Virus record (IMG/VR): IMGVR_UViG_2645727555_000008
Origin: a virus
Taxonomy: Duplodnaviria > Heunggongvirae > Uroviricota > Caudoviricetes
Strand: one strand, 5' to 3'
DNA: 4,883 nucleotides
The notes under the pieces were generated by a model. The model saw nothing but the letters and a program-made list of their open reading frames with translations. It did not search any database and was not told the origin of the DNA. Every line of letters begins with the position of its first letter. Positions within the stretch are counted from its first letter, which is position 1. Positions 1 through 4,883 of this stretch are shown here, piece after piece. A program made the position numbers and the translations under genes.

Positions 1-1
1 G

Positions 2-93
2 TTCCGTTCATATGAGCAAAAGTGGTGTTGAAGAAACATCCGTTTTGTGATGTTTTTTTAATCTTTTTGGGGTTTTAATTCCTATCGATCAAG
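2..93. repeat. Left arm of perfect 92-bp inverted repeat
   Basis: Positions 2-93 are the exact reverse complement of 4792-4883 (checked base by base); match breaks at 94 (t) vs 4791 (t, complement a). The repeat reaches the window edge, so its outer extent is unknown. Contains a weak AT-rich hairpin (aaacatc 34-40 / gatgttt 50-56) followed by a T-run. Confidence 0.9.
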
Positions 94-240
94 TTTTATT
101 CTGGTTTCGTAGATCGGGCACTTCGCTGCTATACCGCAGATGTCACAAAGCAACTTCTGCTTATTCAGGTTGAAATTTGATTCGATAGTGTAGGAGCCGT
201 CTTCAAGACGACGAACCCAGCGCGTGCGTTTTAGATCCAT
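82..240 (-). CDS. Doubtful 52-aa basic Cys-containing peptide
   Basis: ATG (revcomp of 238-240) to TAG (82-84); translation MDLKRTRWVRRLEDGSYTIESNFNLNKQKLLCDICGIAAKCPIYETRIKLDR. No convincing Shine-Dalgarno; 3' end runs into the inverted repeat; below the ORF-track size cutoff. Confidence 0.2.
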   Translation of the reverse strand: MDLKRTRWVRRLEDGSYTIESNFNLNKQKLLCDICGIAAKCPIYETRIKLDR

Positions 241-318
241 ATGTCATTTTTCTGTGATTGTTAGCCGAGGCAACGATAACCCACCAGGTGCGCCGAAGGT
301 AGTAAATGCCTGTTTTAA

Positions 319-335
319 TTATTCACATATCCACA
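319..335 (+). promoter_or_regulatory. Two tandem DnaA boxes
   Basis: TTATTCACA (319-327) and ATATCCACA (327-335), each one mismatch from the TTATCCACA consensus, placed just outside the GATC cluster and iterons as in the P1 oriR layout. Confidence 0.6.
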
Positions 336-341
336 GGATAG

Positions 342-399
342 ATCCTAATAAAGAGATCCATAGATAGATCCTTGTATAGATCAAATAAGATCCCCGATC
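342..399. promoter_or_regulatory. GATC (Dam methylation) site cluster in AT-rich origin region
   Basis: Six GATC sites at 342, 354, 367, 379, 389 and 396 within 58 bp, mostly in repeated (T)AGATCC units; chance expectation is about one per 256 bp. P1-type origins carry clustered GATC repeats required for initiation. Confidence 0.7.
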
Positions 400-440
400 G
401 CTGTAAGCCGCGCCACGACTGGTCTGAAGCCATGTTCATG

Positions 441-541
441 TATGCTGTCAGCGGTAATTGATAGTCTGTCAACGGTTCGCCGTATGCTGCCAACTGTTTT
501 TGGTATGCTGCCAGCGGCAAATCAAGTATGCTGTCAGCGGT
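441..541 (+). repeat. Upstream iteron array (4 copies, incC-like)
   Basis: Direct repeats of the 15-bp core TATGCTGTCAGCGGT at 441-455, 483-497 (degenerate, TATGCTGCCAACTGT), 504-518 and 527-541; spacing 21-23 bp, with a half-iteron TGTCAACGGT at 466-475. Lies directly upstream of repA, so the repA promoter is probably embedded here. Confidence 0.85.
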
Positions 542-561
542 TGAATGACAAAGGTGTCCAC

Positions 562-2998: not shown

Positions 2999-3274
2999 TC
3001 ACTCAAAAGTGCTGATGCTTAAAATACGCTCAAGATGTGCGGCATCTTCATCACTGATTTGTTGAGTCTCTTCTACGTACCAACAGTTGCCGTTATGCCA
3101 ACAAACACCATCATCATCAACCATCACTGAATCAGCGTCATGACCTGTATATTCAACGAGAACACGCTGGATCAGCGCGTCAGTTTCTTCGTCGTTAAGG
3201 CCATCGGCTTTGACCATAAAAAGCGGAAACACGTCATAGACAGTGCTGGTAACGATTCGAACTAAAACTCTCAT
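2999..3274 (-). CDS. Hypothetical 91-aa strongly acidic protein
   Basis: SD AAGGA about 8 nt upstream of ATG; hand count about 19 Asp+Glu vs 5 Lys+Arg, with runs such as DEETD, VDDDG and SDEDAA. Confidence 0.6.
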   Translation of the reverse strand: MRVLVRIVTSTVYDVFPLFMVKADGLNDEETDALIQRVLVEYTGHDADSVMVDDDGVCWHNGNCWYVEETQQISDEDAAHLERILSISTFE

Positions 3275-3329
3275 GTGTTTTTCCTTTTGTGGTTAGTGTT
3301 TACTTATTTTGTTAGTTATGAATAGGCGA

Positions 3330-3755
3330 TCAATCTTCTTGTTTAGGGAAAAACTGTTCAATAACTCTGTCAACGGCTGTGTCTATATGGAGTAGATGCC
3401 ACACAACCATATCTTTGCTTCCCATGCCTTGTGTGAATATCACGTCATACTTACGCCATGCGCAGTGGAACCAATATGCTGAGTCATCAATTGGTAAATC
3501 CTCTCCCGCCTCTTTGAAGTATTTCAGCAACATTGCCTGCTCTGCCGTTGGCGTTGGACCTATTTCCTGAGCGTACATACGGATGAATCGCTGCCAGTCT
3601 GTCTCGTCGGGGGTTGGATCTGGTGGATTCATTTCGGCGATAGCGTTTCGTAGCTGATGCGCCCAATCAGGTTCAGGAAAGCCTTTTGATACTTCATCAT
3701 CAATAACATCCAGAGCCGCGTTTGCAGCATCGTAGAGTTTCTTAATAGCTGTCAT
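3330..3755 (-). CDS. Hypothetical 141-aa acidic protein
   Basis: ORF begins just downstream of the terminator at 3804-3830, so likely its own transcription unit; hand count about 26 Asp+Glu vs 13 Lys+Arg; Pro/Asp-rich segment NPPDPTPDETD. Confidence 0.6.
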   Translation of the reverse strand: MTAIKKLYDAANAALDVIDDEVSKGFPEPDWAHQLRNAIAEMNPPDPTPDETDWQRFIRMYAQEIGPTPTAEQAMLLKYFKEAGEDLPIDDSAYWFHCAWRKYDVIFTQGMGSKDMVVWHLLHIDTAVDRVIEQFFPKQED

Positions 3756-3803
3756 ATTTTCTTGACCCTTTAAACAAATTGTTTTCTTAATAAGATAATT
3801 GCG

Positions 3804-3830
3804 ATAAAAAAGGCGTCCAACTGGACGCCT
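3804..3830 (-). terminator. Rho-independent terminator after the SPFH gene
   Basis: On the - strand transcript: 8-bp GC-rich stem (aggcgtcc 3811-3818 / ggacgcct 3823-3830), 4-nt loop, then a run of 7 U (complement of aaaaaaa 3804-3810), 13 nt past the SPFH stop codon. Confidence 0.6.
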
Positions 3831-3846
3831 GAACTTTTAAGGGGTG

Positions 3847-4677
3847 TTATTTCACTGTAATGAAAGGAGTGTTAGCCCCTTGAGTCATGTACTGCGGTAA
3901 CTGGCCATTCCATTTATTGATGGCTTCCAGCTCCATAACGTTCGGGTTTTGACGCAGAGCTTCACCGCGCAGACGAATGGCGTCTGCTTCTGCTTGCGCA
4001 CGAGCACGGATAGCATCAGCTTCACCATTAGCCTGTTCACGTAGCATATTCGCCTCAGCTTTACGCTGTTCAACTTCCTGCTGACGTTGCAGAGTACGCT
4101 GGTTAGCCGTTACTTTGGCGTTGATAGATTCAATGACGGTTTTTGGGTAATCAGGTTTTCCAACCCATGACAGGCTCAGTACCTCAATACCAACCGGAGA
4201 CATCTCTTTCTGAATATCTTTCAGTGCGTTGTCCAGCAATTGTGCCTTACCACCGTCGATAAATGAGTCAGTGGTCATACGGCTGGCCAAACGGTTTAGA
4301 GAGTCGGCAATTTTCTGACGCAGATCTGATTCGGTGATATCGTCTACGCCTTTGCGATAGGTCTGGAACACCGTCGTTACCTTGTCACGATTAACCAGAT
4401 ACGCAACGCCAATTTTGTGACCAATAGCAGTACCGTCACTCATCTGGAATGTGAACGGTTCGTCGTAGGTCTTCATTTGTTTGAAGGTCGGGAATACGTA
4501 AAGTTCGGTGTTAAGACCTGTCCATTGGCGACCAACGCCAACCACTTCACCAATCCCTTTGTCTTCACCTAATTTGTTTACTTTGATGCCAACGTATCCA
4601 GGCTCCACGCGATCACAGCCAGTAAGACCCATTGTGCAAATAGCCGCCAGAGCAACTGCAAGTAAACCTTTCTTCAT
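3847..4677 (-). CDS. SPFH/band-7 (HflK/HflC-like) family lipoprotein, 276 aa
   Basis: N-terminal signal peptide with lipobox (LAVALAAICTMGLTG-C); central region and Ala/Glu/Arg-rich C-terminal coiled coil (EADAIRARAQAEADAIRLRGEALRQNP) match SPFH architecture from memory; SD AAGGGG 9-12 nt upstream of ATG. Confidence 0.65.
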   Translation of the reverse strand: MKKGLLAVALAAICTMGLTGCDRVEPGYVGIKVNKLGEDKGIGEVVGVGRQWTGLNTELYVFPTFKQMKTYDEPFTFQMSDGTAIGHKIGVAYLVNRDKVTTVFQTYRKGVDDITESDLRQKIADSLNRLASRMTTDSFIDGGKAQLLDNALKDIQKEMSPVGIEVLSLSWVGKPDYPKTVIESINAKVTANQRTLQRQQEVEQRKAEANMLREQANGEADAIRARAQAEADAIRLRGEALRQNPNVMELEAINKWNGQLPQYMTQGANTPFITVK

Positions 4678-4680
4678 TAC

Positions 4681-4776
4681 TTATTTCCCCTTTGCTTTGA
4701 TTAATGAGTTGATAAACTTACGACCAGCAATAAGACCGATTACAGGAGCACCAAAACCAACGATAACTCCAAACAT
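4681..4776 (-). CDS. Possible 31-aa hydrophobic leader peptide coupled to the SPFH gene
   Basis: MFGVIVGFGAPVIGLIAGRKFINSLIKAKGK; its TAA lies 3 nt before the SPFH ATG and overlaps the SPFH ribosome-binding region. No good SD of its own; upstream sequence enters the inverted repeat. Confidence 0.3.
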   Translation of the reverse strand: MFGVIVGFGAPVIGLIAGRKFINSLIKAKGK

Positions 4777-4883
4777 GACGGCTAAATCACTCTTGATCGA
4801 TAGGAATTAAAACCCCAAAAAGATTAAAAAAACATCACAAAACGGATGTTTCTTCAACACCACTTTTGCTCATATGAACGGAA

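Follow-up and report, generated by a model that had tools for sequence, protein, structure and literature searches.

Two inward-facing IS91 right ends bound a phage-plasmid replication module in a short Escherichia coli draft scaffold

The window (the whole 4,883-nt stretch of DNA analyzed here) begins and ends with the same sequence in opposite orientations, which raises the question of what this terminal repeat is and how it came to bracket a complete replicon. An earlier note had described an exact 92-bp inverted repeat, and direct comparison bears this out: positions 2-93 and 4792-4883 are reverse complements with zero mismatches, and pairing breaks from position 94. A repeat finder returned arms of 99 nt (2-100 and 4785-4883, 97% complementarity), and its runners-up for the window measure 14-20 nt and carry mismatches. 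Chance cannot account for an exact 92-nt match in a sequence of 4.9 kb. Position 1 (G) is unpaired only because the sequence stops at 4883, and the shared bases number 93 at the left arm and 92 at the right.

Identity and extent of the repeat arms

We found that the left arm is the right end (oriIS) of a full-length 1.83-kb insertion sequence on plasmid pECTm80 (L031), which carries orf121 and an IS91-family tnpA annotated as an IS91-like ISEc37 family transposase. The right arm is the same end in inverted orientation (Table 1), with 100% identity to locus L002 and 96.8% to pWR501 (L003). The arm sequence is present in 1645 PLSDB plasmids and lies about 100 bp 3' of an IS91-family tnpA in pWR501, NZ_CP050863.1 (L030) and pECTm80. 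The copy in NZ_CP050863.1 is 96.9% identical; its orf121 (1350-1715) encodes 121 amino acids and ends at the start of tnpA (1715-2902), whose product reaches 289 bits with NF033538 (cut-off 125). Full reference copies are 1832 bp long, start with CGAG (CTCG on the other strand) and finish with ...CCTATCGAT, followed by CAAG or GAAC; four independent contexts agree up to this terminus and diverge past CAAG. The left end of IS91 begins CGAGTAGGCAGCCTGACGG....

These features correspond to the published ends of IS91, in which CTCG is the terIS cleavage site, oriIS abuts 5'-CTTG/GTTC without target duplication, and the last 82 bp together with CTTG are enough for oriIS function (PMC13181058). Imperfect subterminal palindromes have also been described in IS91 oriIS (PMC13181058), and each arm contains one; the folding energy of the arm is no better than that of shuffled sequences (z = -0.2), so folding adds no independent support. 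An IS91 isoform is defined by at least 95% nucleotide identity to X17114 over the whole IS and at least 95% TnpA identity (PMC13181058); here 89 nt are visible, and the PGAP name for the matching full copies is "IS91-like element ISEc37 family".

Table 1. Coordinates of the features in the 4,883-nt window
Feature	Position	Strand	Evidence or remark
IS91-like right end (oriIS), last 89 nt	1..89	+	89/89 match to L031 (pECTm80)
Imperfect subterminal palindrome, GAAGAAACATC N8 GATGTTTTTTT	30..59	.	centroid DNA fold pairs 30-40 with 49-59
Truncated gene for a 214-aa hypothetical protein, codons 1-51 remaining	82..240	-	compared with the intact L024 protein
IS91 target tetranucleotide 5'-CTTG (CAAG on +), phage-plasmid bases	90..93	-	uninterrupted in relatives
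Origin region	319..541	+	DnaA-box-like TTATTCACA (319), six GATC at 341-399, five 15-nt iterons at 441-541
Replication initiator gene, Rep3/RepB family, 404 aa in the annotation of relatives	442..1656	+	PF01051
Downstream array of 12 iterons (TATGCTGTCAGCGGT and variants)	1657..2188	+	repeat families D1-D3
Five small phage-plasmid ORFs (70, 111, 59, 91 and 141 aa)	2236..3755	-	the same calls recur in every related locus
SPFH/Band 7 lipoprotein gene, 276 aa	3847..4677	-	Pfam PF01145, 106 bits
3' remnant (37 codons and stop) of a 66-aa membrane-protein gene	4681..4795	-	compared with the intact L024 protein
IS91 target tetranucleotide 5'-CTTG	4792..4795	+	uninterrupted, then native sequence, in 17 related loci
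Second IS91-like right end (oriIS), inverted, last 88 nt	4796..4883	-	exact reverse complement of 2-89
Mirror copy of the subterminal palindrome	4826-4855		inside the right arm

The 92 paired bases comprise 88 bases of IS and the 4-base target tetranucleotide CTTG; as IS91 is target-specific, this tetranucleotide is identical on the two sides. The earlier note had seen no recognizable transposase end in the repeat; this was mistaken, as the arm is the oriIS end of IS91/ISEc37 adjoining a canonical 5'-CTTG. Among the explanations it offered, inverted copies of a flanking element proved correct, and a duplicated gene end finds no support. It was also right that the window encodes no transposase or recombinase, an absence explained by the contig stopping before the tnpA genes.

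The window is the entire 4883-bp scaffold DF970362.1 of E. coli draft assembly GCA_001297725.1 (identical to locus L029), and proteins identical to its own carry the name E. coli. Each arm consists of the last 88-89 nt of an element that is 1.83 kb long in full, in line with the previous suggestion that the repeat might be longer than the window allows. Only these 88-89 nt of each copy are visible, and tnpA, terIS and the surrounding replicon lie outside the window. The left element runs leftwards off the contig, where its tnpA would be on the + strand, and the right-hand element continues rightwards past the contig end. The repeat touches both window edges, and seems short, for one reason only: assembly of the draft contig stopped inside a repeated IS. 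Unable to resolve this IS, a short-read assembler would have stopped after roughly one k-mer of each copy, and the apparent "perfect 92-bp terminal inverted repeat" would then be 88 nt of IS and a 4-nt target. Arm length would in that case mirror the k of the assembler; the 93/92 asymmetry would fit k = 93, assuming that one contig cannot use the same canonical k-mer twice.

The enclosed replication module and its empty-site relatives

The interior (about 90-4795) is the part of a ~109-kb SSU5-like E. coli phage-plasmid that carries its replication functions. It aligns without gaps to such phage-plasmids, with 99.3% identity to pECAZ155_2 and 4707/4708 matching bases in both L024 and L025. Across SSU5-like or pHCM2-like phage-plasmids of Enterobacteriaceae (for example Escherichia phages PhiR41_1, CMS-2020a and Cyrano, and pECAZ155_2) it is collinear at 98-99.98% identity, and Salmonella phage SSU5 itself is 75% identical over window positions 2238-3599 only. 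In the SSU5-like relatives, the neighbors of the module are phage-type replication and recombination genes, whereas here two IS ends cut the region from its context.

The initiator scores 37 bits against Pfam PF01051 Rep3_N (cut-off 22.4), is labeled a RepB family initiator in pECAZ155_2, and has an alternative start at 562. GATC density in the origin region is ~13 times the window average. The 12 downstream iterons share the orientation of the five upstream ones, and the window holds 17 iteron matches in all, where chance predicts 0.1. With a Rep3 initiator and direct iterons at its origin, the interior qualifies as an iteron-regulated Rep3-type theta replicon. In the R replicon of P1 (oriR-repA-incA), a DnaA box, a GATC cluster and five iterons precede rep, and a second array follows it. 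The layout here is like that of this plasmid-prophage replicon, a resemblance of architecture only, and the Rep3_N match of the initiator is modest. The last of the five small ORFs (141 aa) is a DUF7238 protein, and a lipobox (LTGC) is seen in the SPFH/Band 7 translation.

Both target sites occur in related loci without an IS. The left CTTG is intact in L001, L016, L019, L023, L024 and L025, and L024 and L025, one base different from the interior in 4708, show both CTTG sites empty. The native phage-plasmid flanks in the empty-site relatives read ...CCAGCCTTAT and GTAGAAATCAGCG..., and ...ATTCACACCAGCCTTAT and GTAGAAATCAGCGACGG... are likewise native flanks. On the visible side of each junction native sequence resumes with no added bases; the terIS-side junctions are off the contig. 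At the left junction, the gene for the 214-aa protein, annotated intact in L001, runs into the IS end (...KLDR*). At the right junction, the IS removed the first 29 codons of the 66-aa membrane-protein gene. Both flanking genes are likely inactivated, to judge from these truncated reading frames.

A whole-window search of PLSDB found neither junction, 400-nt junction probes had no match in 5426 complete E. coli genomes, and exact 35-mers for both junctions had none in IMG/VR. The left junction had no match in GTDB representative genomes or JGI metagenomes, and the 52-aa fusion ORF at this junction is absent from the gene-position index. As neither junction is in the databases searched, the arrangement has no independent second observation.

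Two IS91 insertions and competing explanations

Arm identity, target tetranucleotides, empty sites in relatives, gene truncations and the whole-contig status of the window are direct observations, and from them we infer, with high though not complete confidence, two recent inverted IS91 insertions that point their oriIS ends inward and disrupt both genes flanking the replicon. Two copies of an IS91-like rolling-circle IS, of a family with HUH Y2 transposases, would have inserted beside the replication module, each directly 3' of a 5'-CTTG. With one such target on each strand, the copies would be inverted and their oriIS ends would face the replicon. Full 1.83-kb copies presumably lie beyond both contig ends, followed by the remaining phage-plasmid. 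IS91/ISEc37 is otherwise recognizable by the matching arm with its adjoining 5'-CTTG and by reference copies of 1.83 kb with the terIS CTCG signature. What differs is that two inverted copies surround one segment and that the host replicon is a phage-plasmid, whereas isoforms in a published survey are mostly single-copy and on IncFII plasmids (PMC13181058). Against this reading, two copies and a donor in one strain would be somewhat unusual.

Instead of belonging to full 1.83-kb copies, the arms might come from a right-end fragment of IS91 of ~90-200 bp, either a short non-autonomous remnant or a mini-derivative, and the contig would break all the same, the remnant being repeated. Short remnants do make up many of the PLSDB occurrences of this end, such as one of ~175 bp in pSCU-107-1, which is cut by an IS66-family element and is identical to the arm over its IS portion. 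Many of the 1645 plasmid records with the arm sequence have no annotated IS91 tnpA adjacent to it, and the last 82 bp with CTTG form by themselves a functional oriIS (PMC13181058). Yet both junctions are precise, target-specific and beside CTTG, and the interior is 1 nt in 4708 from relatives with empty sites. Precise junctions and near-identical empty-site relatives imply recent insertions, which need a transposable element with terIS or a surrogate. Later truncation to a remnant at both copies is the less parsimonious account, and we consider remnants improbable.

A still less probable alternative, to which we give little credence, is that an IS91-flanked 4.7-kb replicon moved from the phage-plasmid into another replicon (for example an IncF plasmid) as a portable captured cassette. 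The insertions bracket the complete ori-rep-iteron module rather neatly, and IS91 resides mostly on IncFII plasmids beside their replicons (PMC13181058; L002, L003 and L030). However, IS91 moves DNA lying between an oriIS and a terIS (or surrogate), and the mobilized DNA is on the terIS side (PMC13181058), so DNA between two inward oriIS ends is not what its read-through mobilizes. Database records in PLSDB and among complete E. coli genomes also include no copy of the module outside a phage-plasmid with these junctions.

The same geometry answers whether the pair forms a composite transposon. Both inner ends are oriIS, in inverted orientation, whereas a canonical IS91 transposable unit requires an oriIS paired with a terIS of like orientation; the pair therefore forms neither such a unit nor a functional composite transposon. 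The previous expectation that a match to a known IS end would make this an ordinary composite element therefore holds for "ordinary", the end being that of IS91, and fails for "composite", given two inward oriIS ends. The composite transposons Tn10 and Tn5 likewise have two inverted copies of one IS, here around a 4.7-kb segment. Unlike theirs, the ends of IS91 are functionally distinct, the enclosed DNA lacks a usable end pair, and selectable cargo is absent, the segment holding a replicon only.

A foldback or chimeric assembly artifact, with one contig end miscopied as its reverse complement onto the other, would produce a perfect repeat at both ends of a short contig, here one base off perfect symmetry. 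The earlier note listed this option, but the arms are foreign to the contig interior and equal a known IS end at the exact IS terminus. Both junctions also sit exactly 3' of a CTTG, and near-identical relatives have this CTTG, uninterrupted, at their empty sites. A random breakpoint would follow CTTG/GTTC about once in 128 cases, and two such breakpoints have a probability of ~6 x 10^-5. Contigs ending inside repeats are, moreover, normal for de Bruijn assemblers, and we regard an artifact as very improbable.

The record is a complete entry bounded by a repeat with a full replicon inside, and it could be read as a real 4.9-kb molecule with terminal inverted repeats, either a linear plasmid or a small circle whose joined arms make a ~185-bp palindrome. 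We give this a negligible probability. The ORF list and a Pfam scan of the seven main ORFs contain no protelomerase, terminal protein, protein-primed polymerase or recombinase. The arms truncate both flanking (terminal) genes and break off about one k-mer in, at an arbitrary point within IS91. In phage-plasmids of 108-113 kb the interior sequence is an internal, collinear stretch, and E. coli would not stably maintain a palindrome that is both long and perfect.

We also considered a cloning junction (GATC and ATCGAT occur at both boundaries) and rejected it: the arm is a natural IS end, whose terminus reads ATCGAT.

Orientation of the copies and potential inversion

The explanation of the repeat is an already known element, and the observation is in that sense ordinary. 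The striking terminal repeat is a known IS glimpsed through a short draft contig, a matter mainly of clean-up, and it should not go forward as a new invertible element, a linear plasmid or an artifact. What the two IS91 insertions add is that IS91, usually a single-copy IncF resident, would be found twice in a phage-plasmid, with two genes beside the replication module inactivated. The inverted pair also makes this module potentially invertible, since the 4.7-kb replicon segment could be turned around if the two copies underwent RecA-dependent recombination.

The mirror arrangement could further be a natural record of fork-coupled, strand-specific IS91 insertion on both sides of the origin, although we hold this to be unlikely. 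Two events cannot establish a bias, but the orientation of both copies fits a replication-coupled one. If replication is bidirectional from the origin at ~320-540, both CTTG targets would be on the lagging-strand template, and both tnpA genes would point against fork movement. Were this so, a fork-coupled pair of insertions would also yield a replicon segment invertible by recombination. The same orientation bias has been reported for the IS91 family in chromosomes (PMC3971601), and we observed the same geometry beside the IncFII replicons in L003 and L030.

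The terminal inverted repeat and its match to an IS91 right end

The window begins GTTCCGTTCATATG... and ends ...CATATGAACGGAA. A repeat finder run on the whole window returned a single long inverted repeat, with arms at 2-100 and 4785-4883 (99 nt, 97% complementarity); all remaining inverted repeats were 14-20 nt long and contained mismatches. Direct comparison found 4792-4883 to be the exact reverse complement of 2-93, with the first mismatches at position 94, confirming the perfect 92-bp inverted repeat described in the earlier note. This length far exceeds chance, and comprises 88 nt of insertion sequence (IS) and a 4-nt target.

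The first 100 nt of the window match 1645 PLSDB plasmids, chiefly from E. coli and Shigella, often more than once in a record and outside annotated features. In pWR501, an IS91-family transposase gene lies ~100 bp upstream of the match; in NZ_CP050863.1 and pECTm80, the gene at this distance is labelled "IS91-like element ISEc37 family transposase". Because the latter two copies have 1832 bp in common (96.9% identity) and lie in different flanking DNA, they define the boundaries of the element. It starts with CGAG (5'-CTCG on the opposite strand), the published cleavage site at terIS, the left end of IS91 (PMC13181058), and terminates ...TTCCTATCGAT; the next four bases are CAAG in one copy (5'-CTTG on the opposite strand) and GAAC in the second (5'-GTTC). 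In NZ_CP050863.1, a 121-aa ORF precedes the transposase gene (tnpA) and its end coincides with the tnpA start; IS91 itself carries orf121, overlapping tnpA (PMC13181058). Against NCBIfam NF033538, the model for IS91 family transposases (cut-off 125 bits), the reference tnpA reaches 289 bits. Aligned with pWR501 and pSCU-107-1, both arms are near-identical as far as ...CCTATCG(A/C)T CAAG and unrelated beyond, and window 1-89 is identical to the pECTm80 copy (89/89). According to a 2026 study, the terIS and right (oriIS) ends of IS91 are distinct, target duplication is absent, the element inserts with oriIS adjoining 5'-CTTG or 5'-GTTC, and the right end requires only the last 82 bp and this tetranucleotide (PMC13181058). 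Taken with these requirements, the match indicates that the arms are complete, predicted functional oriIS ends of an IS91/ISEc37-type element. The arms had earlier been read as lacking a recognisable transposon end, which this match contradicts; the suggestion of inverted copies of a flanking element is borne out by IS91-type right ends in inverted orientation, each next to CTTG.

IS91 or a right-end remnant also lies ~0.7-0.9 kb downstream of IncFII repA in pSCU-107-1, pWR501 and NZ_CP050863.1, with the oriIS end facing the IncFII replicon in all three. In pSCU-107-1, an IS66-family element (ISEc43) has reduced the right end to ~175 bp.

Two insertion sites around a phage-plasmid replicon

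By megablast, 103 PLSDB plasmids cover >80% of the window, with the top matches all confined to 88-4794/4795; the best is pECAZ155_2 (112.9 kb, 99.3%, gap-free). Records of three Escherichia phages of ~108 kb (PhiR41_1, CMS-2020a and Cyrano) also contain the interior block, and Salmonella phage SSU5 has a more distant version (75%). Neighbouring genes in these relatives are phage-type replication and recombination genes (DNA polymerase III alpha-like, gp32-like, RecA-like recombinase, SbcCD-like proteins and ribonucleotide reductase). These matches and neighbours identify the interior, at the sequence level, as the replication region of an SSU5-like phage-plasmid.

Features of the interior, in window coordinates
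Feature	Position	Remarks
DnaA-box-like TTATTCACA	319	
GATC sites (6, within 60 bp)	341-399	
Upstream iterons (5, 15-nt)	441-541	same strand as downstream array
Rep3-family initiator gene	442-1656	Pfam PF01051
Downstream iterons (12, 15-nt)	1657-2188	same strand as upstream five
Palindrome ATGAAATATGACTGCGGAAC/GTGCCGCAGTCAGTTTGCAT, hairpin-forming	2196-2235	intergenic, after iteron array
Five small ORFs, one DUF7238		between downstream iterons and SPFH gene
Palindrome GGCGTCCA-ACT-GGACGCC, hairpin-forming	~3809-3833	intergenic, DUF7238 and SPFH genes either side
SPFH/Band 7 lipoprotein gene	3847-4677	

The 17 iterons, all on one strand, compare with 0.1 expected by chance. In the P1 plasmid replicon, a DnaA box, a GATC cluster and five iterons precede rep, and a second iteron array follows it; the window replicon appears alike in layout, with its DnaA-box-like site, GATCs and 5 + 12 iterons. 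The downstream array is possibly a copy-control (handcuffing) array, and the two hairpins are probably transcription terminators.

A rare 91-aa ORF variant at 2999-3274 is found in two phage-plasmid contigs of 108-109 kb (L024 and L025), which differ from window 88-4795 by 1 base in 4708. Both sites are intact in these contigs, reading ...CCAGCCTTAT CAAG TTTTATT... on the left and ...AATCACT CTTG GTAGAAATC... on the right. By this comparison, each IS end directly abuts the 3' side of a CTTG that was there beforehand, one per strand, and because these targets lie on opposite strands the IS copies are inverted. The interior contains 31 CTTG/CAAG and 42 GTTC/GAAC sites; a random breakpoint would follow CTTG or GTTC about once in 128, which for two breakpoints together gives a probability of ~6 x 10^-5. 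The near-identity to relatives with empty sites, together with the identical arms, indicates that both insertions are recent.

Of a 214-aa hypothetical gene, the left insertion has spared 51 codons, now fused to ...R-stop; a 66-aa membrane-protein gene has lost its first 29 codons to the right insertion. Two target-specific, inverted IS91-type right-end junctions thus surround an iteron replicon that is itself intact. Both junctions were absent from PLSDB, 5426 complete E. coli genomes and the viral (IMG/VR) collection, and the left junction from GTDB representative genomes and JGI metagenomes; the IS91-replicon-IS91 arrangement is so far known from one strain only.

Extent and origin of the repeat

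Draft assembly GCA_001297725.1 contains the window as one complete record, DF970362.1 (4883 bp), and proteins identical to those of the window carry the label Escherichia coli. De Bruijn-graph assemblers turn a unique segment between repeat copies into a contig reaching about one k-mer into each repeat; the length of 92 is therefore technical. The 93 bases shared on the left (1-93) against 92 on the right would fit k = 93, with the shared k-mer used once in the contig. Most probably the 1.83-kb IS as a whole forms the true inverted repeat.

The arms could instead be short right-end remnants, like that of ~175 bp in pSCU-107-1, which is possible and less parsimonious for two recent, precise insertions. 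Movement of the replicon cassette to another plasmid is very improbable. A linear or palindromic 4.9-kb replicon is rejected: genes at both ends are truncated, the ORF list and a Pfam scan of the seven main ORFs showed no telomere functions, and ~110-kb elements carry the interior as an internal segment. The foldback assembly artefact raised in the earlier note is rejected because the arms are foreign to the interior, stop at an exact IS terminus and adjoin an IS91 target.

Transposition, orientation and other insertions in relatives

We propose that each junction marks a full IS91 copy that arrived via the family's rolling-circle pathway. As described for IS91 (PMC13181058), transposase would nick between CTTG and oriIS, the nicked strand would be displaced toward terIS, and a single-stranded circle would then insert beside a new CTTG. 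Displacement begins at oriIS and proceeds through the IS, continuing past terIS on read-through; since it runs away from oriIS, DNA between inward-facing oriIS ends is not mobilised by IS91, and the inverted pair does not form a canonical composite transposon. Likely consequences are that the two flanking genes are lost and that RecA could invert the 4.7-kb segment. Insertion sequence, target sites and type of phage-plasmid are all known ones, viewed here through a fragmented assembly.

If replication is bidirectional from an origin at ~320-540, both CTTG targets would lie on the lagging-strand template and both tnpA genes would oppose the fork. IncFII plasmids replicate unidirectionally, and given this the IS91 copies ~0.9 kb downstream of IncFII repA in pWR501 and NZ_CP050863.1 would have the same geometry. 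The predicted orientation of both window copies matches the bias reported for the IS91 family in chromosomes (PMC3971601); with two to four events, the idea is suggestive only.

The window's phage-plasmid lineage seems to collect IS insertions. Two related contigs (L027 and L028) represent phage-plasmids that differ from the window at 1 position in ~2 kb, and break inside the 59-aa ORF. The L028 (Logan SRR5054635) contig end at 7860-7887 corresponds to window ~2814-2817 and has TGAACCGCCCCGGTTTTCCTGGAGAGTG in place of native sequence, which has the look of a terminal repeat of the IS3 family; L027 breaks off close to this position. In pECAZ155_2, an IS21-family element (rve and IstB genes; locus L023, 17373-19868) interrupts the gp32-like gene. 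Locus L012 (1-11339), from the 5.57-Mb record CP043541.1, has the SPFH gene together with the phage-plasmid genes for replication and recombination upstream of it; its likeness to the window ends at window ~3432, followed by SymE-toxin-like and IS66 genes, and this copy in a chromosome-sized record may be integrated or rearranged. The RecA-like recombinase gene just upstream of the 66-aa gene, seen in L005, L009, L011-L014, L016, L017, L022 and L025 among the comparison loci, occurs in forms of 357 aa and 779 aa, the longer being an intein-containing allele because it has Intein_splicing and LAGLIDADG domains.
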